Made by a program: the position numbers and the translations under genes. From Dehalococcoidia bacterium (lineage in GTDB: Bacteria > Chloroflexota > Dehalococcoidia > Lucifugimonadales > JADFKI01), in assembly GCA_965243355.1 (NCBI GenBank), contig OZ251547.1, forward strand, positions 1,815,475-1,879,474: a DNA stretch of 64,000 nucleotides, written 5' to 3'. The notes under the pieces were generated by a model. It had not been told where the DNA came from. It did no database searches and was given only the letters and a program-made list of their open reading frames with translations. Positions 1,587-62,820 of this stretch are shown piece after piece (position 1 is the stretch's first letter; each line of letters opens with the position of its first letter).

Positions 1587-1630
1587 CTCTACTTTTTTAG
1601 GAAAAAAGTAGCAAAAAACTTTTGAGTGGG
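1587..1630 (+). repeat. AT-rich dyad element, copy 1
   Basis: ctctacttttttaggaaaaaagtagcaaaaaacttttgagtggg. Lies in the divergent spacer between gene starts 1533(-) and 1766(+). Confidence 0.9.
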
Positions 1631-1765
1631 CGTCGATGGGTGGGATTGGGTGGGGGCAAAGGGGTATAGCGGTTTCAATTGGACTTGCGGCTACTTTGTA
1701 GCCTATAATTTGGGGGAATTGGCGACCGAATTCAGGGCAAAGCAGCAAAGAGGAGCAGTTGGCAG

Positions 1766-2818
1766 ATGGCAGATACTATCAGGATAGGATTTGTGGGGGC
1801 GGGCGGGAATACCGAGCTTAGGCATATTCCGGGGTTTAAGGCGATAGAGGGGGTGGAGCTGGTGAGCGTGGCGAATCGCAGCCGGGCGTCGGGGCAGCGC
1901 ATCGCGGATAAGCACGGGCTGGCGGAGGTGTACGACGATTGGGTGGAGCTGATAGAGGCGGATGATACGGACGCCATCTGCATCGGGACGTGGCCGTATA
2001 TGCACAGGGATATGGTGCTGGCGGCGCTGGAGTCGGACAAGCATGTGCAGACAGAGGCGCGGATGGCGATGGACGCGGCGCAGGCGCGCGAGATGCTGGA
2101 CGCGTCAAGGCTGGCGCCGCATCTGGTTACGCAGATAGTTCCCTCGCCGATGACGCTGCGGGTGGATAGCACGGTGAAGGAGCTCATCGCCAACGATTAC
2201 CTGGGGGAGGTGTATTCGGTCAATCTGGTGGTGAACGACCGGACGATGCACCCGGCGGGTTTCGTGACGCCGCAAGCGCCATTTCACTGGCGGCACAACC
2301 GCGATTTCAGCGGGTACAACATAATGCAGATGGGGATCTGGTATGAGGCGATGATGCGCTGGGTTGGGCCGGCGCAGAGCGTCCAGGCGCTGACGCGGGT
2401 TCATGTGAAGAGCAGGGCGGACGGGAACGGGAACGCGCAGGTCATCACGATACCGGATCACATAGAGGTTCTGTGCGAGATGTATTCGGGGCCGCTGCTG
2501 CATATCCGGATGAGCGCGGTTACGGGGCATTCGCCGACGAATGGCGCTTGGCTGTTCGGGAGCGATGGGACGCTGTTCGTGGAGTCGCCGGGGATGCGGC
2601 TGCTGGGCGGTCGACGCGACGACGGCGAGATGGCTGAGATAGACATTCCCGCCGAAAAGCAGGGGGATTGGCGGGTGGAGGAGGAGTTCATCAACGCGAT
2701 ACGGGGAGAGGAAGAGATAACGCATACGAACTTCGCGGACGGGGTTCGGTATATGGAGTTCACGGAGGCGGTGACGCTGAGCGCGCAGTCGGGGGAGAAG
2801 GTGCATTTGCCGCTGTAA
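1766..2818 (+). CDS. Gfo/Idh/MocA family NAD(P)-dependent oxidoreductase
   Basis: N-terminal Rossmann motif IRIGFVGAGGN, 350 aa, typical family length and layout. Confidence 0.8.
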   Translation: MADTIRIGFVGAGGNTELRHIPGFKAIEGVELVSVANRSRASGQRIADKHGLAEVYDDWVELIEADDTDAICIGTWPYMHRDMVLAALESDKHVQTEARMAMDAAQAREMLDASRLAPHLVTQIVPSPMTLRVDSTVKELIANDYLGEVYSVNLVVNDRTMHPAGFVTPQAPFHWRHNRDFSGYNIMQMGIWYEAMMRWVGPAQSVQALTRVHVKSRADGNGNAQVITIPDHIEVLCEMYSGPLLHIRMSAVTGHSPTNGAWLFGSDGTLFVESPGMRLLGGRRDDGEMAEIDIPAEKQGDWRVEEEFINAIRGEEEITHTNFADGVRYMEFTEAVTLSAQSGEKVHLPL

Positions 2819-2966
2819 GGGCGGGGGTTGCGCGGCCTGGCGGCGGCGTACATCCTGCGATGATGCTGATGCCGTCGGTGGTCGCAAGCGTGGGGCCGGC
2901 GGCGTATATTCTGCGGTAATAGCAATGCCGCCGGCCCCCGCCATTGCGCGGGCCGGCGGCAGGCAA

Positions 2967-3296
2967 TCAAGTTTGGTGGCGCAAGGTGGGGATTTCGGCC
3001 TCGGCGGTTCGGGCGACGTTTTCCGCGCCTAGGCGGGCTATGGAAATGGCGGGGAGGGTTGTGGTGTGGAGGCCGGCTGACGCGCCGAGTTCTAGGGCGA
3101 AGCGGGCGGCGGCCTCGTTGTCGTCTGCCTCCATAATCGCGACGAAGTCTATGCTGCCCAGGACGGCGTATAGGCCTAGGATGCTGGCGTCTGGGGCGGC
3201 GATGTCGGATTCGGCGCGCAGGATGATGTTGGAGTCGGCTAGGATTTTGTCGCGGCCTTCGGGGGTTAGGGTGATTAGCAGGATGTATCTTGCCAT
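2967..3296 (-). CDS. GYD domain protein
   Basis: MARYILLITLTPEGRDKI... resembles the GYD family. GGAGG lies upstream of ATG 3296. The longer track ORF (to 3431) has no better start context. Confidence 0.6.
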   Translation of the reverse strand: MARYILLITLTPEGRDKILADSNIILRAESDIAAPDASILGLYAVLGSIDFVAIMEADDNEAAARFALELGASAGLHTTTLPAISIARLGAENVARTAEAEIPTLRHQT

Positions 3297-3468
3297 AGCG
3301 GGGCAGCCTCCTTGCGGCAATTCGCTTGCCCTCTTGTTATAAAGGGCTATAATGGCTGTAAAAGTGACACAATCAGCGCGATAGGGCGCGGCGGTTTGCG
3401 CCTCAGCATCCCTAATATAGCAGATAATCACGAATGTAACGATATTGCGATACGCGGAGGGGGACAGA

Positions 3469-4701: not shown

Positions 4702-5943
4702 ATGACATACGCGGCGGATTTGCATCTACACTCGCCTTACGCGCGGGCTACTAGCGGGCAGCTGACCTTTGACAATATGGCGCGCTGGGCGCGGGTGAAG
4801 GGGATTGATCTGATGGCGAGCGCGGATTTTACGCATCCGGTTTGGTTCGCTGAGACCAAGCGGGCGCTGACGCCGCTGGGGAACGGGCTGTATGAGCGTG
4901 GCGGCGCGCGGTTTGTTATAGGGACTGAGGTGAACTGCAGCGGGATGCAGGGGGGCAGGAACCGGCGGGTTCATATGCTTGTGTTCGCGCCGTGCGTTGG
5001 GGTGGCGGAGCGGGTGAACGCGGCGCTGGCGGGCAAGGGGGCGCTGGCGGCGGATGGGCGGCCGACGCTGCGTATGACGCCGCGCGAGCTGCTGGGGCGG
5101 CTGCTGGATATAGACGACCGAATGATGCTGATACCGGCGCACGCATGGACGCCGCATTTCGGCGTGTATGGGGAAAGGTCGGGGTTTGATTCGCTGGGGG
5201 AGTGCTTTGGGGATCTTGCGCCGCATATCCGCGCGATAGAGACGGGGCTGTCAAGCGATCCGGCTATGAATTGGCGCGTTCCCGAATTGGATGATGTGAG
5301 CATCGTTTCGTTTTCGGACGCGCATTCGTTGCCTAAGATGGGGCGGGAACTGACGGTGATAGACGGGGAACTGAGTTATGAGGGGTTGCGGGCGGCGTTG
5401 GATGGGCAGGGGATTGCTTATACGGTGGAGTTTTTTCCTGAGGAGGGGAAGTATCATAATTCGGGGCATCGCAGGTGCGGGGTTAGTTTGTCGCCGGAGG
5501 AGGCGCTGTTGGCGGGCGGGCGGTGTCCGGAGTGCGGCGGGCGTTTGACGGCGGGGGTGTTGGAGCGGGTGGATATGTTGGCGCGACGGCAAGCGGATGG
5601 GGCAGACGGGTTGGATCGTGGTGATGGCAAGGGTCGGCCGCCGTTTAGGTCGTTGGTGGGGTTGCAGCAGATTGTTGCTGAGAGCGTGGGAAGGGGCGTG
5701 AATACTAAGGGAGTGCAGGGTCGGTATATGCGTTTGGTGGAGGGGGTTGGGAGCGAGCTGCATATATTGACGGCGGCGGCGATTGGGGATATAGCGGCGG
5801 TTGGGGGGGAGCGTATCGCTGAGGGGGTTGAGCGGGTTCGGAGGGGGGATATTGTGATTGAGCCGGGGTATGATGGGGTGTATGGGCGGGTGAGGGTGTG
5901 GCCGGATGGCGATAAGGGGGCGTGGCAGTTGGGGTTGGGGTGA
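4702..5943 (+). CDS. PHP-domain protein, endonuclease Q-like (TIGR00375-type)
   Basis: N-terminal DLHLHSPYA PHP metal motif plus a zinc ribbon CPECGGRLTAGVLERV, as I recall for EndoQ-family proteins. Confidence 0.6.
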   Translation: MTYAADLHLHSPYARATSGQLTFDNMARWARVKGIDLMASADFTHPVWFAETKRALTPLGNGLYERGGARFVIGTEVNCSGMQGGRNRRVHMLVFAPCVGVAERVNAALAGKGALAADGRPTLRMTPRELLGRLLDIDDRMMLIPAHAWTPHFGVYGERSGFDSLGECFGDLAPHIRAIETGLSSDPAMNWRVPELDDVSIVSFSDAHSLPKMGRELTVIDGELSYEGLRAALDGQGIAYTVEFFPEEGKYHNSGHRRCGVSLSPEEALLAGGRCPECGGRLTAGVLERVDMLARRQADGADGLDRGDGKGRPPFRSLVGLQQIVAESVGRGVNTKGVQGRYMRLVEGVGSELHILTAAAIGDIAAVGGERIAEGVERVRRGDIVIEPGYDGVYGRVRVWPDGDKGAWQLGLG

Positions 5944-5972
5944 TGTGAGAGTTGTAGGGGCGCTTACGGCAA

Positions 5973-6173
5973 CTAAGAATAGTGCTTGGCGCGTTGGATT
6001 AGGAAGGCGATCATTATGGCGGTGGGGATTGCCACTATGATTAAGCCTAGCAGGATGATGTTGGCGAAGGGGCCTAGCCCTAGCAGGTTGTCTATGATGT
6101 GGCGGATCCAGTCTAGCAGGACGGGGTCGCCGGGCTCGGAGTGGTGAAGGGCGACGGTTAGCAGGGGGGGCAT
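5973..6173 (-). CDS. Small membrane protein, translationally coupled to the upstream MFS gene
   Basis: ATG 6171-6173 overlaps the MFS stop TAA (6173-6175) as TAATG. The C-terminal LGPFANIILLGLIIVAIPTAIMIAFLI is a clear TM helix. The rest of track ORF 5973..6692 is Arg-rich junk. Confidence 0.45.
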   Translation of the reverse strand: MPPLLTVALHHSEPGDPVLLDWIRHIIDNLLGLGPFANIILLGLIIVAIPTAIMIAFLIQRAKHYS

Positions 6174-7711
6174 TAGTCTGACTCTCCGGCGGATGCGGTG
6201 GCTGCGGCGGGTGCGGGCTGGTAGCGTATGGAGAATCGGCGCTCTTTGACGGCGTAGCTGGCGAGGGTGGCGCCTAGCAGGGTGACGCCGGCTATGGCGA
6301 AGGGGATTTCGTATGCGCCGGTGAGGTCGTAGAGGACGCCCGCCATAAAGACGCTGATTGATCCGCCGATTTGGTGGGACATAGTGGCGAGGCCGTTTAG
6401 CGTGCCGATGTGCCTCACGCCGTAGATGTCGGCGGTGAGGGAGCTTGTGAGCGGGGGCGTGGCTATCCAAGACATTCCGGCTAGGGTGGCGAAGCCCCAT
6501 ATGCCGATGAAGGGGGGTATGGATAGGCCCCAAAGCATTGAGGCGAAGCCGGGGATTACCAGCATCACATAGGCTAGGAAGCGGATGAAGTAGATTGTGC
6601 CGAGCAGGTTTTTGCGGCTGAAGTGGTCGGATAGGACGCCGACTACGATTACGCCGACGAAGTTTAGCAGCTGCATATATGAGAATGCCCAAGCCGCCAC
6701 CGCGGGGGATATGCCCAAGTCAAGGGCGAAGGGGACGTAGTGGGCGCTGATGATGATGGTGGTTACGCCGCAGACGAAGTACGCGCCCGAAAGCAGCAGG
6801 AACGGGGGGGATCTGAGGGCGCTTGCCCAGCGGTCGGTCTCGAGGGGGGCGCGGGTGGCGCTGACGGCGCGGGATCGGGCGGCGGCGGCGCGCGACGCGG
6901 GGGATGCGTCTGATGCCGGGGATCCGTCGCCGTCGGGGGTTTCGCCGACCTCTTCGGGGGTGTTTCGCATAACGACTAGGACGAGGGGGAGGGCGAGCAG
7001 CAGGACGAATAGGCCTAGCACTACCCAGGCGTAGCGCCAGTTGGCGGCGTAGATGAGGGAGCTGGTGAAGGGGACTAGCAGAAAGCCGCCCAATGATGTG
7101 CCGGCGGTGGCTAGGCTTAGCATTATGCCGCGCTTGCGGTAGAACCATTTGGATAGGACGGAATGGACGGTGACAAGCGAAACGCCGCTGGAGGCGGTGG
7201 ACATTATGACGCCGTATATGAGTATCATATAGAGCAGGGAGGAGGATATGCGGTAGAAACCGAAGTCGATGCCGAAGTCGGGGAGGCTGCCGGATAGGGA
7301 TAGGGTGAGGGTGGACAGGCCAAGCACAAGCAGGCTGAAGGATATGACGGAGCGCGCGCCGTAGCGGTCGTAGAGCCTGCCTAGGAAGGGCTGGGTGATG
7401 GCGTTGACCATCGTGCCAACGGCGATGACGAAAGAGATTTCGGAGCGGTTTTCCCAGATGCGGTCGGCCTCCATAGTTTCAATGAAGACGCCGAATCCGT
7501 TGCGCGCGCCCATAGAGACGAACAGGGCGAAGAAACCCGCCGCCGCCACGAAATACCCGTAGTAGATGGGCTTGCGCCACAGGTCGGGTATCGCCGCCGC
7601 GTATCTGGCTAATGTCAAGTTATTGAGCAATGCGGTTTCCTTATTGCCCATACATATTGGCGATGTTGCCGATATTGCAAAGAGGGTAACATTGCGTTGG
7701 CGGATTGGCAA
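6173..7711 (-). CDS. MFS transporter
   Basis: About 12 hydrophobic segments with a central hydrophilic loop. Start is uncertain (TTG 7711 or ATG 7651). Confidence 0.8.
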   Translation of the reverse strand: MPIRQRNVTLFAISATSPICMGNKETALLNNLTLARYAAAIPDLWRKPIYYGYFVAAAGFFALFVSMGARNGFGVFIETMEADRIWENRSEISFVIAVGTMVNAITQPFLGRLYDRYGARSVISFSLLVLGLSTLTLSLSGSLPDFGIDFGFYRISSSLLYMILIYGVIMSTASSGVSLVTVHSVLSKWFYRKRGIMLSLATAGTSLGGFLLVPFTSSLIYAANWRYAWVVLGLFVLLLALPLVLVVMRNTPEEVGETPDGDGSPASDASPASRAAAARSRAVSATRAPLETDRWASALRSPPFLLLSGAYFVCGVTTIIISAHYVPFALDLGISPAVAAWAFSYMQLLNFVGVIVVGVLSDHFSRKNLLGTIYFIRFLAYVMLVIPGFASMLWGLSIPPFIGIWGFATLAGMSWIATPPLTSSLTADIYGVRHIGTLNGLATMSHQIGGSISVFMAGVLYDLTGAYEIPFAIAGVTLLGATLASYAVKERRFSIRYQPAPAAATASAGESD

Positions 7712-7787
7712 TAGGGATATGTTGGGAATTGGGCGATGTAGGGGGTAGGCGGTTGGTTTTTTTGAGATGGTTTAAGGCGTGGGGGAC

Positions 7788-7822
7788 GCTACTTTTGGAA
7801 AAGTAGGCAAAGCTTTTGGGTG
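7788..7822 (+). repeat. AT-rich dyad element, copy 2
   Basis: gctacttttggaaaagtaggcaaagcttttgggtg. Lies in the divergent spacer 7711(-)/7994(+). Confidence 0.9.
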
Positions 7823-7993
7823 TAGCAGATAGCGCTGTTTGTGTGTTGGGGCAACGGGCGCAAAGGCAGATTGCATGGGGGATTTTAGGGGCAAGAATAC
7901 GCTCAGTGGGATAGCCTGTTACAATGGTATGCGAAATAAGCAATTTAAGCCGCCGGTTAGGACGGGCAGGCTATATCAGGGGGGAATGAGAAT

Positions 7994-14513: not shown

Positions 14514-14612
14514 TTTGGGCGGGGTAAATTTCATGCAGAGTTTGGATCCGAGCGTTTGTTTTGCCTAGAAGTTTTGACTGCTTTTTGCAAAAGAAGGCAG
14601 GGGCCAGGTGGT

Positions 14613-16664: not shown

Positions 16665-17705
16665 ATGGGCAAGGCGTCTCAAGTGGTCAGGGCTATAACC
16701 GGATTTGCGCGGGGCAAGGCGGGCGCGACGGAGGGCGCGATGGCGGGGCGCGTGGATGGTGATGATGAGTTGCGTGATATAGAGGCGCATGCGGTTCGGC
16801 TGGCGCGGGAGGCGGGGGGGATTTTGCGGGGGCATTTTGAGCGGGCGCTGGATGTGCGGTATAAGGATGATAAGCAGAGCGATCCGGTTACAAACGCGGA
16901 TTTGGAGTGCCAGAGTTATCTGAGCGCGGCTATCGCGGAGCGGTTTCCGACGCATGGGATATTAGGGGAAGAGGACGACGCGGAGCTGCGCGAAAAGATG
17001 GATAAGCGGGCGGCGCCGGACTTTGTGTGGGCGCTGGATCCGCTGGATGGGACGCGCAATTTTTTGTCGGGGCTGCCGCTGTATGCCTGCTCAATAGGGG
17101 TATTGCATAAGGGCGCGCCGGTCGCGGGGGCGGTGTTTTTGCCTTGGCCGTCTGATGGCAGGGGCATTGTGCTGCATGCGCGCAAGGGCGGAGGGGCGTT
17201 TGCGGACGACGAGCGCATCGTGGTGGCGGCGGCGGATGAGCCGGTGGGGAACCGGCTGATAACGCTGCCGGGCGGGTTTGGTGCGCTGTTCGGGGTCAAG
17301 CCGCCGCTGCGGGATAAGTTCGGGGAGCTGCGAATGACGGGCAGCATCGCTTACGAACTGGTTATGGTGGCAAAGGGGGTAACGCAGTACGCGATTACGG
17401 GCGCGCCGTTTTTGTGGGATGCGGCGGGCGGCGTGGCGGTGGCTCAGGAGGCGGGCTGTTTGGCGCTGCAGGGCAAACGGCCTCGTGGGTTCGCGCCATT
17501 CGCGCCGCCGCTGGCGTGGCATCCGCTGGAGACGTTCGCGCCGGGGTGGCGCAGCGGCCGGACTACGATGGGGGAGTTGCGGAGGTGGCGCGCGCCGCTG
17601 CTGCTGGCGAGTCCAGGGGTTGCGCGGTATGTGGCGGGGAATCTGAGCGCAAGGCGGAGGGTGGTGGCGCGGGTTAGGCGGCGGATAAGGCGGCGGCGCA
17701 AGTAG
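16665..17705 (+). CDS. Inositol monophosphatase family protein
   Basis: GEED and WALDPLDGTRNF motifs. Arg-rich C-terminal tail. The ATG follows the TTG at 16662. Confidence 0.8.
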   Translation: MGKASQVVRAITGFARGKAGATEGAMAGRVDGDDELRDIEAHAVRLAREAGGILRGHFERALDVRYKDDKQSDPVTNADLECQSYLSAAIAERFPTHGILGEEDDAELREKMDKRAAPDFVWALDPLDGTRNFLSGLPLYACSIGVLHKGAPVAGAVFLPWPSDGRGIVLHARKGGGAFADDERIVVAAADEPVGNRLITLPGGFGALFGVKPPLRDKFGELRMTGSIAYELVMVAKGVTQYAITGAPFLWDAAGGVAVAQEAGCLALQGKRPRGFAPFAPPLAWHPLETFAPGWRSGRTTMGELRRWRAPLLLASPGVARYVAGNLSARRRVVARVRRRIRRRRK

Positions 17706-17714
17706 CGGGGGGAC

Positions 17715-17755
17715 GCTACTTTTTGGAAAAAGTAGGCAAAAACTTTTGAGGGAGG
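17715..17755 (+). repeat. AT-rich dyad element, copy 3
   Basis: gctactttttggaaaaagtaggcaaaaacttttgagggaggg. Its 3-prime end supplies the GAGGGAGGG RBS of the next gene. Confidence 0.9.
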
Positions 17756-17756
17756 G

Positions 17757-18575
17757 ATGGCAGGTATGCTTTTTATTTGCAGGACTTGTGGGGTGGAGTT
17801 TGCTGAGAGCGATGAGCCGCCGGAGCGGTGTCCTATATGCGAGGATCCGCGGCAGTATGTTGGGTGGGAAGGGCAGCAGTGGACGACGATGGGGGAGCTG
17901 AAAGCCGATGGGTATCGGTGCGATGTGCGGGAGGAGGAGGCGAATTTGACGGGGGTAGGGATAGCGCCGCAGTTCTCGATTGGGCAGCGGGCGCTTTTGC
18001 TGCAGACGGCGGGCGGGAATGTGCTGTATGACTGCGTTAGTCTGCTGGATGATGACGCCGCGCAAGCGATCAAGATGCGTGGGGGCATTGACGCTATGTG
18101 CTTTTCGCATCCGCATTTCTATGACAGCATGGTGAGCTGGAGCGAGGCGTTTGGGGATGCGCCGATATACATCCCGGAGGTTGACAGGGAGCATGTGATG
18201 CGGCCGCATGCGAATATACGCTATTGGGATGGGGAGCCGCTGGATCTTGCGCCGGGGGCGACGCTGATTAGGTGCGGCGGGCATTTCGCGGGGAGCGCGG
18301 CGCTGCACTGGGCGGACGGCGCGGGCGGCAAGGGGGCGCTGTTTGTGGGGGATACGCTGACGGTGGTGCCGGATAGGCGGTTCGTGAGCTTTATGACGAG
18401 CTATCCGAACTTGATACCGATGTCGGCGTCGGAGGTGAACGGGATAGCGGCGGCGATTGCGCCGTATGAGTTTGACCGCATCTACGGCGGCTGGTGGGGG
18501 CGCAATGTGATGAGCGGCGCGAAAGAGGCGGTGCGGCGGTCGGTGGAGCGGTATATTCGGCATATCGCGCCGTAG
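17757..18575 (+). CDS. MBL-fold metallo-hydrolase with N-terminal zinc-ribbon
   Basis: CRTCGVEF...CPICEDPRQ ribbon and SHPHFYD metal motif. Start may be ATG 17766. Confidence 0.65.
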   Translation: MAGMLFICRTCGVEFAESDEPPERCPICEDPRQYVGWEGQQWTTMGELKADGYRCDVREEEANLTGVGIAPQFSIGQRALLLQTAGGNVLYDCVSLLDDDAAQAIKMRGGIDAMCFSHPHFYDSMVSWSEAFGDAPIYIPEVDREHVMRPHANIRYWDGEPLDLAPGATLIRCGGHFAGSAALHWADGAGGKGALFVGDTLTVVPDRRFVSFMTSYPNLIPMSASEVNGIAAAIAPYEFDRIYGGWWGRNVMSGAKEAVRRSVERYIRHIAP

Positions 18576-18678
18576 CGCCGCATAGTGCATTAGCGTAGTA
18601 CGCGCATTGACGCCATATCGCGCCGTAGCGCAGCATCGTGCGCCCTAGTCATATCATGCCTTAACATTACATCGCGCC

Positions 18679-19044
18679 CTAGCGACGCTCGCGGTGGATG
18701 CGGATGGCGGCGTAGTCTAGGGGGCCGCTGAGGGCGACGTCGGGCTTTTTGACGCTGACGGTTATGGCGCGGATGTCGAAGTCGGTTAGGATTTGGGCGG
18801 CGATTGTTTCGGCTAGGGTTTCTAGCAGGTTTAGGCTGGGGCCTTCGGTTATTTGGCGGACGGTGGCGTACACGGCGGCGTAGTTGACGGTATGGGCGAG
18901 GTCGTCGGATGATGCGGCGGGGCGGGCGTCGCTTTCCATAGACAGGTCTATTATGAACCGCTGGCCGCGCTCTTTTTCGGCGGCGTGGATGCCGTGGTAG
19001 CCGTAGAATTGCATTCCTTTGAGCAGGATTTGGTCGGCGGGCAT
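18679..19044 (-). CDS. folB: Dihydroneopterin aldolase
   Basis: LKGMQFYGYHGIHAAEKERGQRFIIDL is a typical FolB N-terminus, 121 aa. Confidence 0.85.
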   Translation of the reverse strand: MPADQILLKGMQFYGYHGIHAAEKERGQRFIIDLSMESDARPAASSDDLAHTVNYAAVYATVRQITEGPSLNLLETLAETIAAQILTDFDIRAITVSVKKPDVALSGPLDYAAIRIHRERR

Positions 19045-19106
19045 TATGGCAAGTCCTTGTTGGGGGTTATTCGTGGCGTGGGCGCTGTGCTGGTTTGTGA
19101 TGGGGG

Positions 19107-19982
19107 TTAGTCTTGGGTGGGCAGGGATTGGGCTAGGGCTAGGAGGGCTTGGGCGCGCTTGACTACGGGGACGTCTACGACTTTGCCGTCAAGGGAGGTG
19201 GAGCCGCGGCCGATGCGTTCCGCCTCTTGGAACGCCTCTACGACGCGGCGGGCTTGCTCAAGCTCGGCGGCTGAAGGGGAGAAGGTTTCGTTGATGATGT
19301 CGATTTGCGCGGGGTGGATGGCGAATTTGCCTTTGAATCCGATTTGGCGGGCGGACTGGGCGTTGCGGCGGAGGCCGTCGGGGTCGCGGAAGCTGAAGTA
19401 GGGGGTGTCTAGGGCGAGGACGTTGGCGGCGCGGGCGGCTATGGCTATGGCGCTGCGGGCGTAGGCGGTTTCGGATTCGTCTTCGGCGCGCTCTATGCCC
19501 ATATCGTTGGTGAAGTCTTCAGCGCCGAAAGCGGCGCCGATTATGCGGGGGGATGCGGCGCATATGGCGTAGGCGTTGACGATTGCTTGGGCAGTTTCTA
19601 TCCAGGGGAGCAGTTTGGTGTTGCCGATTTCCAGGCCGGCTTTGCGCTCTAGGGCGTCTAGCTTGGTGGATATGAGGGCTATGTCGGCGGGGGAGTTTAT
19701 TTTGCCGACTGATACGCCGTAGATGCGGGGGCCGACTACGGCGGCGAGGTCGTGGTCAAGTAGGCCGGTGTCTAGGGAGTTTAGGCGGGGGATGACGGCG
19801 ACGCCGTTGGCTGACAGGCGGTCTAGGCGGCCGGCGGTGATTGCGCGGGCGTTTGCTTTTTCGGCGTCGGGGACTGAGTCTTCCATGTCGGGTATGAAGG
19901 CGTCGGGGGTTAGGCGGCTTGCGCGGTCTAGCATACGGGGTTGGTTGCCGGGGACGAATAGCAGACTTCTTAGGGCGCTCAT
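19107..19982 (-). CDS. HpcH/HpaI aldolase / citrate lyase beta (CitE)-like, possible (S)-citramalyl/malyl-CoA lyase
   Basis: LFVPGNQPRML and DMEDSV motifs. GGAGAG RBS favours ATG 19982 over 19994. Confidence 0.75.
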   Translation of the reverse strand: MSALRSLLFVPGNQPRMLDRASRLTPDAFIPDMEDSVPDAEKANARAITAGRLDRLSANGVAVIPRLNSLDTGLLDHDLAAVVGPRIYGVSVGKINSPADIALISTKLDALERKAGLEIGNTKLLPWIETAQAIVNAYAICAASPRIIGAAFGAEDFTNDMGIERAEDESETAYARSAIAIAARAANVLALDTPYFSFRDPDGLRRNAQSARQIGFKGKFAIHPAQIDIINETFSPSAAELEQARRVVEAFQEAERIGRGSTSLDGKVVDVPVVKRAQALLALAQSLPTQD

Positions 19983-20108
19983 AGTTCTCTCCATTGTTGT
20001 GTTAGGGGGAATGTGGTGGGTAAGAGTATATCACGCCGCCGTAGCAAGGCTTGTGGTATTATTGGCTGTGGCAGATAAGGGAGTGGGTTTGACGGGGGGC
20101 TGGGGGAC

Positions 20109-45932: not shown

Positions 45933-46064
45933 ATGAATGTCTCCTGTTGCGCGCGCGGCGGTTGGGGTTGTTGTGTTAGTATAACACTAAGGCGGGTAGG
46001 CGTCAGCAAGATGGGGGATATGAGGGCGCACGGGGGCCAAGCGGGGGCGCGGGGGCAGGGGGCC

Positions 46065-46106
46065 GCTCTACTTTTTTGGAAAAAAGTAGCAAAAAACTTT
46101 TGGGGG
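46065..46106 (+). repeat. AT-rich dyad element, copy 7
   Basis: gctctacttttttggaaaaaagtagcaaaaaacttttggggg. Lies upstream of the thiG start (45932, minus strand). Confidence 0.9.
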
Positions 46107-46131
46107 CGGCTATCGCCGCGGATTTGCCGAG

Positions 46132-47511
46132 CTAAGGGCTGCGGGCATTGGGGTCACTTGACTCATTCAAGCCGTCGGGGTTTTTCGCGCGCAGGCGGCT
46201 TTGGATTATGGCTTGGCGTTTTTGGAAGTTTGCCTCGGCTGTGATGGCGTCGTAGATTTGTTCGTGGGTTAGGTTTTCTTTTGGGATGCCGGCGGTGGCG
46301 TGGTGGTTTTGCAGGGCTGTGTCTAGGTCGACTTCGGGGTGGCGGGCTAGGGCGTTGGCGACGGCGGTTTCGCCGCGGGTGGTGGGCGGCGGCGTTGCGG
46401 TTGCGCCAGGGGGCGCATCGGGGCTGTCGGCGGTATCGGCGTTGTTGCCGTTGGCGTTGTTCTTGTTGTTGGCGGGGTTGTTGTAGTCGTGGGCGGCGGT
46501 TTTGGCGGCGTCGGCTTTCTTGGCGGCTTTTCGGGCTTTCTTTTCGGCTATGGCGGCGTCTTTGGCGGCGGATTCGTCGGTTTTGCGCTGCACTTCTTCG
46601 AAGATGGCTAGGACTTCCGCTTTTTGCTCTGGGGTGAGTTCGGCGTTGGCGGATTCCTGGCGGAGGGCTAGGATGCGTTCCGCCTCGCGGCGCTCTTTGG
46701 CGTCTAGGTCGCGGATGCAGGCGTCTATGGATTCGGGGGTGATGTGTTCCCAAGGGATGTCGGAGCCGCGGTAGATTAGGTCTCGGATCGCCCAGATGCG
46801 GTGGGTTTGGGTGTAGGGGTCTTCTATGATGATTCGGCGCGGGCCGAATGTTTTGGGGTTGTCCACGACTTCTAGGAGGAATCTCGCCAAGCCGATGCCG
46901 TTGTCGGTTATCTCGCGGATTTCGCGGGAGAGGCGGGAGTTTAGCATGCGCTCTTCGGCGGGGGAGGTTCGCGGCTGGCAGTAGGGGCTGCGGTTGCCTA
47001 GGCTGCGCTTGACCATTTCTTTGGCGGCGGCGATTTGGTGGTTCACGCGGATTCGGGTGGCTTTTTGGTATTTTTGCTCGGCGGGGTTTGCGCTTTCGAA
47101 GACGCGGGGCGGGCTGAGGATTTCGCTGAGGGCTGAGATTAGGGTGCGGCAGTTGTTGGTTTCTTCGCGGATGTATGCGCCGATGGGTTTGTTTAGGATT
47201 TGTTTGAGGGTGACTTTGGGCGTTTTGGGTTCGGGCGTGTCTTCTTGGCGGACGACGCGGGCGGATGATCCGGGGGTGTCTTGGGGCATTTGGCCGCCCA
47301 TAACGGCGAGGTCGCGGGCGGCTTGTTGGCGGTGGTGGAGTTTGGCGTCGGGGTATTCGCCTTGCACGACGTCCCACATGAATTGGGCTAGGCGGTTGCC
47401 GTTGTCGGTTAGTTGGTTGACGAATTGGGCGAGGTTTTGGCGGAGGGTTTCTTGTTCGGATAGCGCGTCTGGGCGCGTTATGTGGGCGTGGGTTGCGGTT
47501 GCGGTTGTCAT
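46132..47511 (-). CDS. Hypothetical protein with three internal helical repeats and Ala/Lys- and Asn-rich low-complexity region
   Basis: Balanced composition, unlike the overlapping Arg/Pro frame 46163..47629. Start chosen at MTTATATH (ATG 47511), because the upstream part of the track ORF runs through repeat copy 8. Confidence 0.55.
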   Translation of the reverse strand: MTTATATHAHITRPDALSEQETLRQNLAQFVNQLTDNGNRLAQFMWDVVQGEYPDAKLHHRQQAARDLAVMGGQMPQDTPGSSARVVRQEDTPEPKTPKVTLKQILNKPIGAYIREETNNCRTLISALSEILSPPRVFESANPAEQKYQKATRIRVNHQIAAAKEMVKRSLGNRSPYCQPRTSPAEERMLNSRLSREIREITDNGIGLARFLLEVVDNPKTFGPRRIIIEDPYTQTHRIWAIRDLIYRGSDIPWEHITPESIDACIRDLDAKERREAERILALRQESANAELTPEQKAEVLAIFEEVQRKTDESAAKDAAIAEKKARKAAKKADAAKTAAHDYNNPANNKNNANGNNADTADSPDAPPGATATPPPTTRGETAVANALARHPEVDLDTALQNHHATAGIPKENLTHEQIYDAITAEANFQKRQAIIQSRLRAKNPDGLNESSDPNARSP

Positions 47512-47545
47512 GTTGGTTGCCTCCAAGCCTCTCTTCCGCCGGGGT

Positions 47546-47586
47546 GCTACTTTTTGGAAAAAAAGTGGCAAAACTTTTGGGTGGGT
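47546..47586 (+). repeat. AT-rich dyad element, copy 8
   Basis: gctactttttggaaaaaaagtggcaaaacttttgggtggg. Lies in the divergent spacer 47511(-)/47694(+). Confidence 0.9.
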
Positions 47587-47693
47587 GTATGGGTATATTT
47601 GTTCGCATTAAGAATAACGGGAGGTTCAAGTGGTGTCAAGGGTTATTTTCAAATTGGCAAATTGCGCTATAATAGGAATATAGGAGGCGAGCA

Positions 47694-51412: not shown

Positions 51413-51464
51413 GGGCGGGATTGTAGGCGAGTTAGCGGGGGTGTTGTTGTCATTGGGTTTTTAG

Positions 51465-51528
51465 GCAAAAGCTGAGACCGCCCATTAAGAGCGGTCTCGC
51501 GCCCTGGCACCGAAGCAGCAGGGGAATT
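51465..51528 (-). ncRNA. Candidate small RNA, copy 1 (5-prime stem-loop plus intrinsic terminator)
   Basis: Minus strand reads AAUUCCCCUGCUGCUUCGGUGCCAGGGCGCGAGACCGCUCUUAAUGGGCGGUCUCAGCUUUUG. It is preceded by TTGACA, 17 nt spacer, TATACT. Confidence 0.5.
51466..51498 (-). terminator. Intrinsic terminator of sRNA copy 1
   Basis: gagaccgc/gcggtctc stem followed by a CUUUUG tract on the minus strand. Confidence 0.6.
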
Positions 51529-51534
51529 AGGTTA

Positions 51535-51563
51535 AGTATAGTTGGGTTGTGGGTGGGTGTCAA
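51535..51563 (-). promoter_or_regulatory. Sigma70-consensus promoter of sRNA copy 1
   Basis: Minus strand TTGACA (51558-51563), 17 nt spacer, TATACT (51535-51540). Confidence 0.6.
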
Positions 51564-51574
51564 GGGTTTTTGGG

Positions 51575-51599: not shown

Positions 51600-52223
51600 C
51601 TACCAGCGTGGGGGTTTGTGGAATGTGCCTGTGGCGTCTGTTAGGGTGTGGGGGAATTGGCTTGCGCTTAGGGGGCCTTGCCTTATGGGCCTGTAGAAAC
51701 TGGCTGCGTCTTTCAATACCCGATTGGGCCTCTTTTGCGGATTTAGCACTCCTACACTTAGGCCGAATTCGTCCTGGACAATTTTTATTGGGGTTAGGAG
51801 GTCTGCGTCGTTTGATACGACTACGGCTTGTTCGTATTCGTTTCTGAAGGCGTCTAGGAGCAGGTAGCTTGCTAGGTTGACGTCGGTTCCTTTTTCCTCG
51901 GTTCTGAGGACTTCGACCATCCGAGAGCCGTCTGCGGGCGGGCGGGATAGCGGCATTCTGCGCGGGTTGGTTTGGAAGTATCCAAGGTGAACTGAGAGGT
52001 TGGGGATTGTGCGGATGGCGCGGAGATAGGTTTGCTGCCGATGCCCCTTTTGGGTATCGTGTGGGGGTGGATTGACCAGGGCGGCGAAGTATCTGATTCG
52101 ATTTACCCGGCAACCCGGCAGCAGCAGGTTGAATAGGGTTAGGAAGTCAAGCCATTTGTACGGGGCGCCTTGGAGGCTGCCCTTGTATAGGTTGAATCCG
52201 TCTATGTAGAAGTTAGTCAGCAT
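51600..52223 (-). CDS. NYN (LabA-like, PIN-related) domain nuclease
   Basis: MLTNFYIDGFNLYKG..., EEKGTDVNLA and VVVSNDADL acidic motifs typical of the NYN domain. Visibly lower GC than its neighbours. Confidence 0.8.
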   Translation of the reverse strand: MLTNFYIDGFNLYKGSLQGAPYKWLDFLTLFNLLLPGCRVNRIRYFAALVNPPPHDTQKGHRQQTYLRAIRTIPNLSVHLGYFQTNPRRMPLSRPPADGSRMVEVLRTEEKGTDVNLASYLLLDAFRNEYEQAVVVSNDADLLTPIKIVQDEFGLSVGVLNPQKRPNRVLKDAASFYRPIRQGPLSASQFPHTLTDATGTFHKPPRW

Positions 52224-52228
52224 TTTTC

Positions 52229-52259
52229 ACAAAAGCTGAGACCGCCCGAAGGCGGTCTC
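52229..52259 (-). terminator. Intrinsic terminator between sRNA copy 2 and the NYN ORF
   Basis: gagaccgcc-cgaa-ggcggtctc (9 bp stem, tetraloop) followed by a CUUUUGU tract. Confidence 0.6.
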
Positions 52260-52292
52260 GCGCCCTGCCGCCGAACCGACAGGGGAGTTCAC
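52229..52292 (-). ncRNA. Candidate small RNA / leader, copy 2, ending 14 nt before the NYN start codon
   Basis: Minus strand reads GUGAACUCCCCUGUCGGUUCGGCGGCAGGGCGCGAGACCGCCUUCGGGCGGUCUCAGCUUUUGUG. Same architecture as copy 1. Confidence 0.5.
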
Positions 52293-52298
52293 GCATTA

Positions 52299-52328
52299 AG
52301 TATAATCCGGATCTAAACGGGGTGTCAA
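52299..52328 (-). promoter_or_regulatory. Sigma70-consensus promoter of sRNA copy 2 / NYN
   Basis: Minus strand TTGACA (52323-52328), 18 nt spacer, TATACT (52299-52304). Confidence 0.6.
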
Positions 52329-52420
52329 GGGTTTTTGGGGTATGGTATTCTTACCTTGCAGTGCTGATATGATATACTTGCCCTAAACCGCTCCGAAACC
52401 GCTGAAAGGCAGGTGTCATT

Positions 52421-53190
52421 ATGGCGAGCCAAAGAGTGTACAGACATGACGCGCTATGCCCGAAATGCGGCTCGAATTGGGTCAAGAAAGACGGCCACTC
52501 GCGCGGCAAGCAGATATTTAAGTGCAACCAGTGCGGCCGCAAGCATCAAGAGGGCGCAAAGCATCGGTTCACCGATGAGCAGAAAGAGCAGGCTGTGAAG
52601 ATGTGCGCGGAGGGGATGAGCCTATCGGCGACCGCCCGCGTGATGGGCGCGAGCGTACCCACTGTAAGCAAGTGGGTCAAAAAAAGGGGGCCTTGGCGAG
52701 AGAGCGTCTGACGCGCTTTATAGAGTGGCGTACAAGTGGGCGGCAAGACAGCGTCCGCGCGTCTATTGTGGCGTTTGATGAGATGTGGACATACTTGGGG
52801 ATAAGGCGCGGCGAGCGGCGTCAAGACCTGTGGATATGGACTGCGGTGGTGGAGGAACGGGACGGAGTCCGCTGGCGGATGTATGAGGTGGGCGGCAGAG
52901 ACTTGTCCGCGTTCTCGCGCTTGCTGGATCGGCTGCCGGGAGCTGACAGGTATGAGACAGACGCTTATCCGGTGTACGAATGGCTGCCTCGGGACAGGCA
53001 TGTGATAGGCAAGGGCGGAGCGGTGAACTGGAATGAGGGGCTGCACTCTAAGCTGAGGAGCAAACTCAACAGGCTGGTAAGGCGGACAAAGGGCTACACA
53101 AAGAGCGTGGAGATGCTGAAACATCTGCTGGCGATAGTGTTTGAGGAGTGCCTAAATCAGTCCATCAAATCAATGAACACTGCAAGGTAA
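52421..53190 (+). CDS. IS1-family transposase InsAB (InsA 52421..52711; InsB frame joined by -1 frameshift)
   Basis: InsA zinc finger CPKCGS...CNQCGRK plus an HTH. InsB frame contains VAFDEMWTYLG. The two frames overlap at an A7 run. Confidence 0.85.
52679..52685 (+). other. Programmed -1 ribosomal frameshift site (A7 slippery run)
   Basis: gtc aaa aaa agg in the InsA frame. The -1 frame continues KKGALARERL... of the InsB ORF. Confidence 0.7.
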
Positions 53191-53219
53191 GAATACCTGG
53201 GGTATTGGGTGGTTTTGGG

Positions 53220-57836: not shown

Positions 57837-57870
57837 GCGTGGGGGCGCGACGAAAGAAAGTAGGGGGGAC

Positions 57871-57906
57871 GCTACTTTTGAAAAAGTAGGCAAAACTTTT
57901 TGGGGG
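57871..57906 (+). repeat. AT-rich dyad element, copy 9
   Basis: gctacttttgaaaaagtaggcaaaactttttggggg. Lies between the tandem plus-strand genes 57836/57996. Confidence 0.9.
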
Positions 57907-57995
57907 AGGGCGCAAGGGACAAGATTAAGGGAATGATATGGGCGCGGGGTTCAAGCGGCGGCGATGATAAGAGATGCAAAGCAGAGGGGGACGCA

Positions 57996-60277: not shown

Positions 60278-60373
60278 GGGGTTGCTCCGGGGATGGTATG
60301 GGGATAAAAGATAAAGATACCAGAGGAGGCGGGGGCGCGCCACTATATTGATGGGGTTGGAAACGAGGGGGAC

Positions 60374-60410
60374 GCTACTTTTGAAAAAGTAGGCAAAACT
60401 TTTTGTGGGT
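60374..60410 (+). repeat. AT-rich dyad element, copy 10
   Basis: gctacttttgaaaaagtaggcaaaactttttgtgggt. Lies about 95 nt upstream of the argS start (minus strand). Confidence 0.9.
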
Positions 60411-60472
60411 GTTTAGAGGCGGGCTTGTTGGGATGATAATCGGTAGGAAGTCAAAGGGGGGATTGTATTGGG

Positions 60473-61573
60473 CTAGTTTAGGGTTATGCAGGGGCGGATT
60501 TTTGCTAGGGTTTTTTCGCCGATGCCTTTGATGTCGGTTAGTTGGTCTGGGTGGGTGAATGTGGTGATGGTTTGGCGGTGGTTTAGGATGCGTTGGGCTA
60601 GGGTTTCGCCGATGCCGGGGAGGGTTTGTAGGGCTTGGGCGTCGGCGGTGTTGATGTTGATGATGGGAGTGGGGCAGGTTTCTGATGACGTCGTGCGGGC
60701 TTGGCCGGGGGGGCGCCAGCCGGCGGCTTGGGCGTCTTGTTCGGTGCAGAACCAGCGCTCGCCTTGGGTTGGGTCTATGTGGGTGCGGGCGTAGTAGGGG
60801 CTGTCGGGGGTGTGATAGACGCGGTTGCCGTTGGAGGAGATGTTGCCTTTGATGCGGCAGTCGGGGTTACGGGTAGGGGTAGGCGCGGGGGTTGCAGACG
60901 ACGTAGGTAGGGGAGTTGCGGTTGATACGGGCGTTGCGACCGGAGTAGATGGCGGGGTTGTAGATGGCGTAGGGGTTGCGGGCGTTTCCGACGGGTTAGC
61001 CGCCAGAGTTTCGGATGGTATAGACGCCGAAATTGCGGGCGGCGCGGGGTTTATGGATGGATTAGGGGTGGGTGTTTCGGATGGCGCGGGCGCGGTGGTT
61101 GTTTGGGTTGCGGTAGCGGGGATTTGGGCTAGGGTTATGGCGATTGTGGGCGTTAGGGCTGGCGCAGGCGTTTGCGTAGCGGTAGGCGTGGGGGTTAGCG
61201 CTGGGATGCGCGTGGCCGTAGATGTTGGGATGCGCGTGGGGGATGCGGTTGGAGCGGGCGCGGGTATGGTAGGGAGCGGCGCTGCGGTGGTTGCGCTTGG
61301 CGTTGGTATATGGGATTGTAGGGTAGCGAGGTTTGCAAGCGGCGGCGGCGTAGTGGTTGCGTTGGCCGGCGGTGTGGGGGTTGGAGGTTGGAGGTCGGAT
61401 AGTAGGATGATTGTGAAGGTGGGGGTTGGTTGTGGGATGATAGGGGTAGTAGCAGGGTTGGTTTGGGTGATGGGGGCGGGTATGGGGGTAGGGGGCGTGG
61501 GCGCGCCGCCGCATCCGATTAGGGCTAGGGCGCATAGCAGTAGGATGCTTGCTAGGGATAGGGCGGCGCGCAT
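60473..61573 (-). CDS. ComEA-like lipoprotein with long Pro/Thr-rich linker and C-terminal helix-hairpin-helix DNA-binding domain
   Basis: Lipobox LIGCGG. About 200 aa of PT-rich linker. INTADAQALQTLPGIGETLAQRIL and IKGIGEKTLAKI HhH motifs. Confidence 0.7.
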   Translation of the reverse strand: MRAALSLASILLLCALALIGCGGAPTPPTPIPAPITQTNPATTPIIPQPTPTFTIILLSDLQPPTPTPPANATTTPPPLANLATLQSHIPTPSATTAAPLPTIPAPAPTASPTRIPTSTATRIPALTPTPTATQTPAPALTPTIAITLAQIPATATQTTTAPAPSETPTPNPSINPAPPAISASIPSETLAANPSETPATPTPSTTPPSTPVATPVSTATPLPTSSATPAPTPTRNPDCRIKGNISSNGNRVYHTPDSPYYARTHIDPTQGERWFCTEQDAQAAGWRPPGQARTTSSETCPTPIININTADAQALQTLPGIGETLAQRILNHRQTITTFTHPDQLTDIKGIGEKTLAKIRPCITLN

Positions 61574-61579
61574 ATTCGG

Positions 61580-62638
61580 TTAGGGATCTACTTGGATGAG
61601 GGCGGGGAGTGTGTCGCGGGGGGTTAGTTCGCCTATGACGGCGCGGGTTTGGACGCCGGTGGCGGCTAGGGCGATTAGCAGGGCGTCTAGCTTGGCGGGG
61701 GGGACGGCTATGAGCAAGCCGCCGGAGGTTTGGGCGTCGGCTAGGAGGATGCGGGTTTGGTCGGGGATGTCGGGATGCCAGTGGACTAGGTCGGCTAGGG
61801 ATTCTAGGTTGCGGTGGGTGCCGCCGGGGGCTATGCCCTGGGCTAGGAGGTCGGGGACGCCGTGTATGACGGGGATGTCGGCGGCGCTGACGCGGGCGTT
61901 GAGGCGGCTGCCCTGGGCTATGAGGCGGAGGTGGCCTAGTAGGCCGAAGCCGGTGATGTCGGCGCAGGCGTGGACGCCGACTTGCATCATGGCGTCTGAG
62001 GCGGCGCGGTTGAGTTCGCTCATAATTTGGATGGCGTTGGCGAGGACGTCGTCGCTGACGCGCTGTTGCTTTCCGGCGGTGGTGATGATGCCTGTGCCTA
62101 TGGGTTTGGTTAGGACTAGGGCGTCGCCGGGTTGGGCGCCGGCGTTGGTTACCTGGTCGCCGGGTTTTAGGACGCCGGTGACTGATAGGCCGTATTTGGG
62201 TTCTTCGTCGTCGACGGTGTGGCCGCCTACGATTAGGACGCCGGCCTCTTGGGCTTTGGACGCGCCGCCTTTGAGGACTTCGCCTAGGATTTCGTGGGGC
62301 AAGGCGATGGGGAATCCGACGATGTTTAGGGCGAATAGGGGTTTGCCGCCCATAGCGTAGACGTCGCTGAGGGCGTTTGCGGCGGCGATTTCGCCGAATG
62401 TGAAGGGGTCGTCCACTATGGGGGGGAAGAAGTCCACGGTGGATACGAGGGCGATGTCGTCGGTTATTTTATAGACGGCGGCGTCGTCGCCGGTGTTGAT
62501 GCCGACTAGCAGGTTGGGGTCGTTTAGGGCGGGCAGTTGGCGCAGAACCTGCGCCAGGTCCTTAGGACTGAATTTGGACGCTCAACCGGCGCAGCTGGCG
62601 AGTTCGGTTAGGCGCGGGGTTTGGTTGGGGTGTGTCAA
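61580..62638 (-). CDS. selD: Selenide, water dikinase (selenophosphate synthetase), selenocysteine-containing
   Basis: The track ORF (61580..62437) starts inside the gene. Extending the frame upstream gives (M)THPNQTPRLTELASCAG-U-ASKFSPKDLAQVL...NLLVGINTGDDAAVY, which parallels E. coli SelD GAGCGCKISPKVL...NLLVGNETRDDAAVY. TTG 62638 follows a GGAGAA RBS. Confidence 0.85.
62539..62555 (-). promoter_or_regulatory. Candidate bacterial SECIS hairpin
   Basis: GGCGCAG-GUU-CUGCGCC (7 bp stem) begins about 26 nt 3-prime of the UGA on the mRNA. Confidence 0.4.
62582..62584 (-). other. In-frame UGA read as selenocysteine in selD
   Basis: TGA sits at the position equivalent to the catalytic Cys17 of E. 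coli SelD, and the reading frame is conserved on both sides. Confidence 0.75.
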
Positions 62639-62781
62639 GGTAGGTTCTCCTGGTGAATGTTGTGGTTTGCGATATGGCGGGCGCAGTAAGGCGTTGCGCC
62701 GTGTGTGCATATGATAGCGGGCGGATTGTGGGTGTCAAGGGTTGGGGGTAGCGGGATTGTGTGTTAGGGAAAGCGGGGGGA

Positions 62782-62820
62782 GCTACTTTTTGGAAAAAGT
62801 AGGCAAAACTTTTGGGTGTG
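62782..62820 (+). repeat. AT-rich dyad element, copy 11
   Basis: gctactttttggaaaaagtaggcaaaacttttgggtgtg. Lies about 145 nt upstream of the selD start (minus strand). Confidence 0.9.

Follow-up and report, generated by a model that had tools for sequence, protein, structure and literature searches.

What is the AT-rich hairpin that recurs eleven times, always in the same orientation, in a 64 kb stretch of an otherwise GC-rich Dehalococcoidia genome? The stretch (contig OZ251547.1, positions 1,815,475 to 1,879,474 of the forward strand; the whole of it is called the window below) had been interpreted from its letters and open reading frames (ORFs), and this sequence-only reading left several natures of the element side by side, among them an operator for a dimeric regulator, an UP-like promoter module, a replichore-polarised motif and a miniature repeat. 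The last two are borne out by the observations below, and the first two fit poorly as the primary nature of the element. The account that we favour, and to which we give about an even chance of being correct, is that of a strand-polarised, non-autonomous and lineage-specific high-copy hairpin repeat resembling REP and IS200 elements.

The copies listed earlier, at 1587, 7788, 17715, 20109, 22324, 33855, 46065, 47546, 57871, 60374 and 62782, are all recovered by a profile hidden Markov model (HMM) built from them. It gives exactly 11 full-length matches in the window, all on the plus strand; no full-length minus-strand match is present in the window, and what is hit on the reverse strand is only the palindromic core of the known copies. 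The pattern CTACTTTT-N0-8-AAAAGTAG is found exactly in ten of the 11 copies, with 0 expected from 100 dinucleotide-preserving shuffles. The sole exception is copy 47546, in which GTGG replaces GTAG. In the conserved core of about 60 nt, a G-rich leader (..GGGAAAGCGGGGGAC) precedes the hairpin, which is followed by (G)CAAAAACTTTTG(A/G)G(T)GGGTG. The hairpin spans 18–23 nt and follows the design CTAC-T4-6-loop-A4-7-GTAG, then (G)CAAAAACTTTTGRGTGGGTG, with an A/T stem of 8–10 bp closed by the CTAC/GTAG clamp. This is in agreement with the consensus and the G-rich leader described previously, and the weaker downstream conservation (..GCAAGGYGGG..) is seen in about half of the window copies. All 11 copies are intergenic and are spaced one per 6–13 kb. 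The recurring pseudo-peptide FFQKVA is indeed the element in translation, and it is found in a spurious N-terminal extension of the ORF 46132–47571.

The T-run and the A-run are equal in length in seven of the 11 window copies (P = 0.03) and in 24 of 32 copies when relatives are included, where about 41% would be expected (P ∼ 1e-4, shared ancestry uncorrected). The earlier claim that the two runs co-vary therefore holds on average, but the symmetry is a tendency and not a fixed trait, since run lengths vary between orthologous copies. Copy 47546 is T5/A7 in the window versus T6/A4 in the related stretch L123, and copy 57871, which is kept in L123 and L127, is T4/A5 in the window and T6/A6 in L127.

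The orientation of the element follows the replication strand. GC skew is taken here as a marker of replication direction, the G-rich strand being the lagging-strand template. The window (61% G+C) has a strongly positive skew throughout, ranging from +0.13 to +0.49 per 2 kb across genes of both strands. With the copies from ten related stretches (L007, L071, L085, L123–L127, L131 and L132) added to those of the window, the asymmetric reading of the element lies on the locally G-rich strand in 34 of 34 copies, drawn from 11 stretches and at least four related genomes (P ∼ 8e-6, counting about 17 independent sites). In the genome ctg28383 the sign of the skew at 1.44 Mb is opposite to that at 1.87 Mb, and the copies flip likewise. 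The genes that flank the copies point either way, and the orientation thus appears to be set by the replication strand, or by the cause of the skew, rather than by transcription. The proposal of a replichore-polarised motif is upheld on both sides of this one skew switch.

The stem itself is conserved as a paired structure. In 29 of the 32 copies from the window and its relatives the four closing pairs of the CTAC/GTAG clamp are formed, and a compensatory change from C:G to T:A (TTAC..GTAA) is present in two independent copies, one of them located in L131 and orthologous to window copy 22324. Pairing does not extend to the position just outside the clamp. As judged from these sequence comparisons, intra-strand pairing of the stem is under selection. 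Compensatory changes of this kind are expected if the strand pairs with itself, and not if a dimeric protein binds the duplex as an operator. The hairpin shows modest folding as single-stranded DNA, with no extended secondary structure beyond it (z-scores of −0.3 to −2).

Copies 46065 and 47546 differ from the others in that they bracket a gene, a feature absent from the earlier interpretation. They are the two ends of a discrete cassette of about 1.6 kb (46042–47650), the shared limits of which were obtained by comparison with copies in unrelated contexts (L085, L124 and L125/L126); the remaining nine of the 11 copies are solo. In particular, L085 aligns with the window over 46042–47642 only, at 87% identity and with unrelated flanks, and this segment holds the two copies and the minus-strand ORF between them. 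The left end (46042–46125, plus strand) consists of a G-rich conserved flank of about 45 nt, the hairpin and a tail, and the right end (47539–47650, plus strand) of the hairpin and a tail of about 95 nt ending ..TAAGAATAACGGG..GTGTCAAGG. The homology extends from about 45 nt left of the first hairpin to about 95 nt right of the second (..GTGTCAAGG..TTTTCA). In all seven stretches with the cassette (the window, L085 and L123–L127, representing five distinct sites) the gene is bracketed by two copies in the same orientation and lies on the C-rich strand, one copy being positioned about 35 nt before the start codon and the other just after the stop. The cassette of L124 is located in a stretch of −0.3 skew that adjoins a skew transition.

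Comparison of copies in unrelated contexts revealed neither terminal inverted repeats nor an obvious duplication of the target at the cassette ends. Likewise, neither a common junction tetranucleotide nor a duplication was seen in four independent cassette contexts and one empty site, at which the junctions are defined only within a few bases. We considered whether the solo copies could be recombination products of the cassette ends, analogous to solo long terminal repeats. Their flanks and tails are unlike either end; as they share only the core of about 60 nt with the cassette ends, they are not simple recombination remnants.

The cassette gene (46132–47511, minus strand, on the C-rich strand) encodes a protein of 459 amino acids that starts with MTTATAT and has no match in Pfam, NCBIfam or PHROG. 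Its AlphaFold model is all-α (pLDDT 66), and a fold search with this model gave no match in the PDB or BFVD. The protein has repeated helical modules and no enzyme signature. A tyrosine-recombinase-like C-terminal motif (..ARH..NHH..THEQIY..) was considered and discarded, being unsupported by Pfam, a PDB sequence profile or the fold search. A homology search with this orphan protein gives 173 relatives with identities of 45–93%. At least 20 paralogues are encoded on the window's own contig of 3.50 Mb and 15–16 on each of two sister genomes, and paralogues within one genome share 45–67% identity. A profile search of 1.8 billion representatives adds more distant relatives that are equally unannotated. 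In the family alignment the N- and C-terminal parts are strongly conserved, and the middle (columns ∼390–500) contains a Lys/Ala-rich helix and, after it, a low-complexity stretch rich in Asn/Gly/Asp that is hypervariable and varies greatly in length among paralogues.

A promoter-like site for the orphan gene (TTGACA-17-TATTCT, 10/12; 47611–47639, minus strand) is located inside the tail of the right end, and a paralogous cassette in L125 carries the same site (spacing 17/18 in the two). The element would consequently be part of both the 5′ and the 3′ untranslated region (UTR) of the transcript. Read on the minus strand, copy 47546 corresponds to the 5′ UTR and promoter region of the gene, and copy 46065 is on its 3′ UTR side, with the start of thiG (minus strand) 133 nt further leftward. 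In L130, which belongs to another lineage, the gene for a distant homologue of 659 amino acids is also located on the C-rich strand; a direct repeat of 35 nt that differs from the element, GCAGACCCTTTGCGCCCCTGCGCCTTTGCGTTAAA, lies to either side of it, with copies at 2875–2909, 5004–5038 and 5049–5083. In this case a TTGACA-17-TATAAT site lies a few bases before the ATG.

The window contains a second gene that is bracketed by direct repeats. It encodes an NYN-domain protein (51600–52223, minus strand), is likewise on the C-rich strand and lies between repeats of about 117 nt (51458–51574 and 52223–52339). These contain a hairpin, GAGACCGC..GCGGTCTC, and their end GGGTGTCAAGGGTTTTTGGG is the TTGACA-containing motif of the orphan-cassette tail.

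The distribution of the element was followed by scanning a single genome of each species with a pattern, which found it in a Dehalococcoidia metagenome-assembled genome (MAG; L007, L071 and L085), and in syntenic loci of close relatives obtained via exact-protein look-ups. Orthologous copies are present in L123 and L131 (92 and 93% nucleotide identity to the window, respectively) and in L127 (87% ArgRS identity), those of L127 and L123 being found at 87–94% ArgRS identity. The more distant L132 (84% nucleotide identity) has copy 17715 and lacks copy 20109. No copy is present in the syntenic 21 kb argS loci of L128 and L129 (76 and 71% ArgRS identity), in which the skew is −0.09 and +0.12, respectively. 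With copies in close relatives and none in these two argS loci, the family appears to be recent and confined to a narrow clade, roughly at the genus level.

In L132 the short sequence TTTGGGGCAG replaces the copy of about 90 nt that is present at 20109 in the window and in L131, and both flanks are conserved; at 84% identity the junctions of this empty site are not base-exact. A shared tail of about 95 nt, GGATGGTTAATCGGTAGG, was considered as a further part of the element. It also occurs at the empty site and is not repeated in the window, and is therefore native upstream sequence of cofE. The empty site, the lack of copies in the argS loci at 71–76% ArgRS identity and the presence of the element at the ends of a multi-copy cassette favour the earlier suggestion of a miniature repeat. 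The element does not belong to a described repeat family as far as could be traced, as had been supposed. Rfam gives no match at the gathering threshold for the window and eight related loci; for 17600–22500, which contains three copies, relaxing the cut-off to E ≤ 1 likewise gives none. A plasmid BLAST search with the element gave no match, and an exact-sequence literature search returned nothing relevant. A metagenome scan with the lineage-specific pattern found only elements of an Acetobacteraceae type, and a viral scan gave three contigs with the same type.

A selected stem, conserved asymmetric flanks, linkage to the lagging-strand template, direct hairpins at the cassette ends, no visible duplication, a narrow clade and an empty site together form the signature of an element that moves or is processed as single-stranded DNA at the fork, as known from IS200/IS605 elements, their miniature derivatives and REP sequences (PMC5027513). 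In such a model, folding of the stem while the G-rich strand is exposed as single-stranded DNA at the replication fork would be the step that allows the repeat to spread and keeps it intact. The mobilising enzyme may be the protein of the cassette itself or an HUH-type protein encoded elsewhere in the 3.5 Mb genome. The copies, their polarity, the cassette, the empty site, the narrow distribution and the stem covariation are observations; mobility through single-stranded DNA and the nature of the catalyst are inferences. Any influence on neighbouring genes, for example of a hairpin in a 5′ UTR or of A-tracts close to promoters, would probably be a by-product of tolerated insertion sites.

Short hairpin repeats of the single-strand type are a known kind of element, and the present variant departs from each described family in the features that define membership. 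In GTAG-tagged REPs the tetranucleotide GTAG, at one stem end, is left unpaired (Di Nocera et al., 2013; PMC3733652). As in these REP/RAYT systems, with their palindromic units of 20–40 bp, short high-copy extragenic hairpin repeats contain a GTAG motif, a protein-coding gene is flanked by its own repeat and action as single-stranded DNA is thought to be involved. Unlike in the GTAG-tagged REPs, the GTAG of our element is paired with CTAC inside the stem (29 of 32 copies). Each copy stands alone and all share one orientation, with no full-length minus match, whereas REPs commonly form inverted pairs (BIMEs and REPINs). REPs tend to follow genes and to separate convergent or unidirectional ORFs, whereas the element is mostly found in 5′ spacers, with none of 11 copies in a convergent and 5–6 in a divergent spacer. 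Finally, REPs flank the gene of their cognate Y1 HUH transposase (RAYT), whereas the element-flanked gene is multi-copy, has no match to Y1_Tnp or any other Pfam family and is predicted to encode an all-α protein.

IS200/IS605 elements have subterminal hairpins, lack inverted repeats and are tied to the lagging-strand template (PMC5027513). In common with these and with PATEs, the cassette has no terminal inverted repeats and, at junctions defined within a few bases, no evident target duplication, a hairpin is located near each end on the same strand, and the orientation is linked to the lagging-strand template (34 of 34 by the sign of the GC skew). It differs in that no TnpA or TnpB was found in the cassette or among the annotated genes of the window and L123–L132, and in that the cassette gene is an all-α orphan that is antisense to the hairpin-bearing G-rich strand. 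Furthermore, the solo copies have a single hairpin. IS200/IS605 elements insert 3′ of a fixed tetra- or pentanucleotide and do not duplicate the target, and no conserved target tetranucleotide is seen here at junctions known within a few bases. The element is also unlike a classical miniature inverted-repeat transposable element (MITE), as the window copies are without an inverted partner and no duplication is evident.

A further likeness is to the MITE-like elements of about 150 bp of Acidocella and Acidiphilium and to units in Clostridia, which share a purine-rich leader, CTAC-T5-6-loop-A5-6-GTAG and CAAAAAACTTT. Clamp types among these elements of other phyla covary (CTAC/GTAG, CTTC/GAAG and CCGC/GCGG). 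In contrast to the window copies, which are one module in one orientation, the Acidocella and Acidiphilium elements carry inverted modules at both ends with a GC-rich stem between them, and they are located just after stop codons in both orientations. The resemblance may reflect either common descent or convergence.

Elements of this second type, each of about 150 bp, occur in Acidocella, Acidiphilium and related MAGs at L003, L015, L017, L087, L093, L118–L122 and about 25 other loci. One end of the Acetobacteraceae element consists of the purine-rich leader, CTAC-T5-GTGAAC-A5-GTAG and CAAAAAAACTTT and the other of an inverted GCCGC-T6-C-A5-GCGGC, and in the middle a GC-rich stem is flanked by an A-run and a T-run. 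In a Clostridia MAG with 40% G+C (L036, 800–1500; also L010, L066, L077 and L095), tandem units of about 150 nt contain CCTACTTTTTTGTAAAAAAGTAGGCAAAAAACTT and AAAAGTTTTTGCCAAGCTTTTTTCAAAAAGCGGC, which match the Acetobacteraceae modules almost exactly although the two groups belong to different phyla. No description of either type was found in the literature searched.

Several observations weigh against a repeat mobilised through single-stranded DNA. No HUH/Y1 or element-tied transposase is found in the Pfam lists of the 64 kb window and about 210 kb of related loci, the sole transposase seen being an unrelated IS1 fragment, and the cassette protein is predicted to be all-α without an HUH, DDE or recombinase fold (Pfam and fold searches). 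The solo copies have one hairpin, and IS200/IS605 derivatives need both ends. A conserved junction tetranucleotide is not seen, and divergence at the only empty site precludes base-exact ends. The paralogues of the cassette gene are old (45–67% identity within one genome), which is not typical of active insertion sequences. Three of the solo copies are retained as orthologues at 84–93% nucleotide identity, such that a host function is possible, and the strand polarity could in principle stem from selection and not from an insertion mechanism.

The rival that best survives is that the element is a cis-acting site bound by the orphan protein family, either as DNA or, in UTRs, as RNA; we regard this as possible but doubtful. 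In that case the paralogues would autoregulate, the solo copies would be sites of a regulon or of a nucleoid protein, and the element would have spread through duplication alongside the gene family. The presence of the element in both UTRs of every family member examined, downstream of the gene's own TTGACA-17-TATTCT promoter, is consistent with this, as are the repeated helical modules and missing enzyme signature of the protein, the age of its paralogues, the retention of orthologous copies with compensatory stem changes and the recurrence of a flanking repeat around the distant L130 homologue. Nucleic-acid binding by the orphan protein is itself a hypothesis only. The orientation of the element tracks the replication strand and not the regulated gene, distances to start codons are irregular, copies are also found after stop codons, and the presence/absence polymorphism upstream of the conserved cofE argues against an essential operator. 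The operator for a dimeric regulator proposed previously meets the same difficulties of variable start distances and gene-independent orientation, and a double-stranded dyad operator requires neither a fixed strand nor compensatory stem changes.

A binding site would also agree with a tendency of the solo copies towards spacers that contain gene starts. For this comparison coding frames were assigned from codon-position G+C and checked with Pfam and the annotation of syntenic loci. The spacer classes of the sequence-only reading are reproduced, with 5–6 divergent, 2–3 plus-plus, three minus-minus and no convergent spacers among the 11 copies. Of the 54 spacers 11 are convergent, and these account for 18% of the intergenic bases, so that finding none of 11 copies there has P ∼ 0.08–0.11. 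A related copy in L007 (1517–1564) is situated in a convergent spacer, between the end of a leucine-rich repeat gene at 1438 and that of a cytochrome c gene at 1672. With this copy and P ∼ 0.1, the earlier restriction to gene-start spacers becomes a tendency at most. Both orientations, convergent spacers and target duplications had been named as the marks of an ordinary MITE or REP, and of these only the single convergent copy was encountered.

It is unlikely, in our view, that the orphan all-α protein itself recognises and moves the elements. The cassette would then be an autonomous, strand-specific and replication-coupled element with the solo copies as its miniature derivatives, and it would represent a new type of element without a known transposase fold (HUH, DDE or tyrosine/serine recombinase).

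A chromosome-level polar signal for the replication, repair or segregation machinery (such as Chi, KOPS, priming or fork-pausing sites), with the hairpin on the lagging-strand template, seems quite improbable to us. Chi and KOPS are G-rich 5–8-mers that are dense, largely intragenic, universal within a species and skewed to the leading-strand sequence. The element resembles these, by their general description, in its G-rich flanks and its strict strand skew, and the perfect polarity with GC skew on both replichores would be expected of such a signal. The skew of the lineage, at 0.15–0.49, is also exceptional, with relatives that have no copy in the argS locus at about 0.1 there. In contrast to these dense oligomers, the element is a strictly intergenic hairpin repeat of about 60 nt, occurs once per 6–13 kb and shows presence/absence variation. 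Its absence from one orthologous site, and from the one syntenic near-relative locus in which it was not found, argues against a core requirement, and its role at the ends of a gene cassette is left unexplained.

A portable transcription signal for the adjacent gene, be it a promoter or UP-like module, a terminator or an attenuator, is very improbable: the in-phase A-tracts in GC-rich DNA, the C-rich-strand reading AAAAGTTTTT-TTGCCT-N13-17-TAGCGT, the location of copies 33855 and 46065 just upstream of promoter-like sites for minus-strand genes and, within the leader as read on the G-rich strand, a short GC stem ahead of the T-run speak for it, but the hexamers score only 7/12 with a spacer of 13–17 where σ70 promoters have 16–18 nt, two copies lie in spacers of 51–63 nt within apparent operons, and the canonical promoter of the orphan gene is located elsewhere and places the element in the UTR. 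A promoter across the hairpin on the C-rich strand (−35 TTGCCT/TTGCTA and −10 TAGCGT/TAGGGT) was rejected on the basis of its 7/12 match, its variable spacer and the TTGACA-17-TATTCT site further upstream of the orphan gene. A consensus scan found no σ70 site of at least 9/12 overlapping any core, which agrees with the earlier failure to fit −35 and −10 boxes and, together with the variable distances and the gene-independent orientation, disfavours an UP-like module. The element had also been judged not to be a terminator, and indeed its stem is A/T-rich and is followed by GCAAAAAC and not directly by a U-tract as in intrinsic terminators; a terminator scan gives no more hits than shuffles.

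The solo copies, all on the plus strand, have varied neighbours. The first (1581–1646; T6/A6, clamp GCTCTAC..GTAGC) precedes a GFO/IDH/MocA oxidoreductase gene that starts at 1766 (plus), and its left neighbour is not established as a gene. Four copies are in divergent spacers. That at 7781–7838 (T4/A4) lies between genes for an MFS transporter (minus, start 7711) and a peptidase S49 (plus, start 7994), and that at 20074–20163, the limits of which are set by the L132 empty site, between HpcH/HpaI (minus) and cofE (plus). The copy at 22317–22383 separates genes for a cyclophilin-like protein (minus) and an FGGY kinase (plus, true start ∼22491). The fourth (33848–33911) is next to an isopropylmalate/isocitrate dehydrogenase gene (minus) and about 40 nt beyond the −35 box of its promoter-like CTGACA-18-TATAAT site. 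The copy at 17708–17772 is located in a 51 nt plus-plus spacer within an apparent operon; its leader contains the TAG stop of the upstream gene, and CTTTTGAG abuts the Shine–Dalgarno sequence GGAGGG and the ATG of the next gene. It is kept in L131 and in L132 (∼84% nucleotide identity). In a second plus-plus spacer, the copy at 57864–57920 follows the stop of an acyl-CoA dehydrogenase gene at 57836 and precedes a hexapeptide transferase gene. The copy at 60367–60428, kept in L127, lies upstream of argS (true start ∼60277, as judged by 559-residue homologues) and after a comEA-like gene with its stop at 60473, and its spacer is minus-minus. The last (62775–62837) is in a minus-minus spacer between thiL (minus, start 62437) and an ORF at 62836–63924 (minus).

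Other features of the region are as follows. A similar but unrelated hairpin in a minus-minus spacer (14563–14597; CTGC-T5-GC-A4-GAAGGCAG, preceded by AGTTTTGA) has only a weak reverse-strand match to the element HMM. A T-box leader (38174–38478, minus strand) is located upstream of the leucyl-tRNA synthetase gene (35570–38044), and a tRNA-Glu gene is present at 43216–43291. The IS1-type transposase fragment (DDE_Tnp_IS1; ORF 52603–53190, plus strand) is part of a segment of about 860 bp (52340–53199) that is absent from L123. In L124, an RVT_1 reverse-transcriptase gene (5531–7072) preceded by a DUF2442 gene is part of an island of low G+C (∼50%), 3 kb from the cassette, and no link to the repeat was seen.

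For genome annotation in this clade, the element accounts for spurious ORFs and for real genes that are given long 5′ extensions. As the module is nearly identical in Acetobacteraceae and Clostridia elements, a widespread undescribed hairpin end may be shared by unrelated small mobile elements. The orphan protein, as a candidate partner outside known families, offers a handle for biochemistry, possibly on the binding or cutting of the hairpin on the G-rich strand. If our account is correct, this would be a natural repeat family in which the orientation is dictated entirely by the replication strand, and the uncultured Dehalococcoidia lineage in which it resides, with its unusually strong strand asymmetry, would carry a built-in marker of replication direction.

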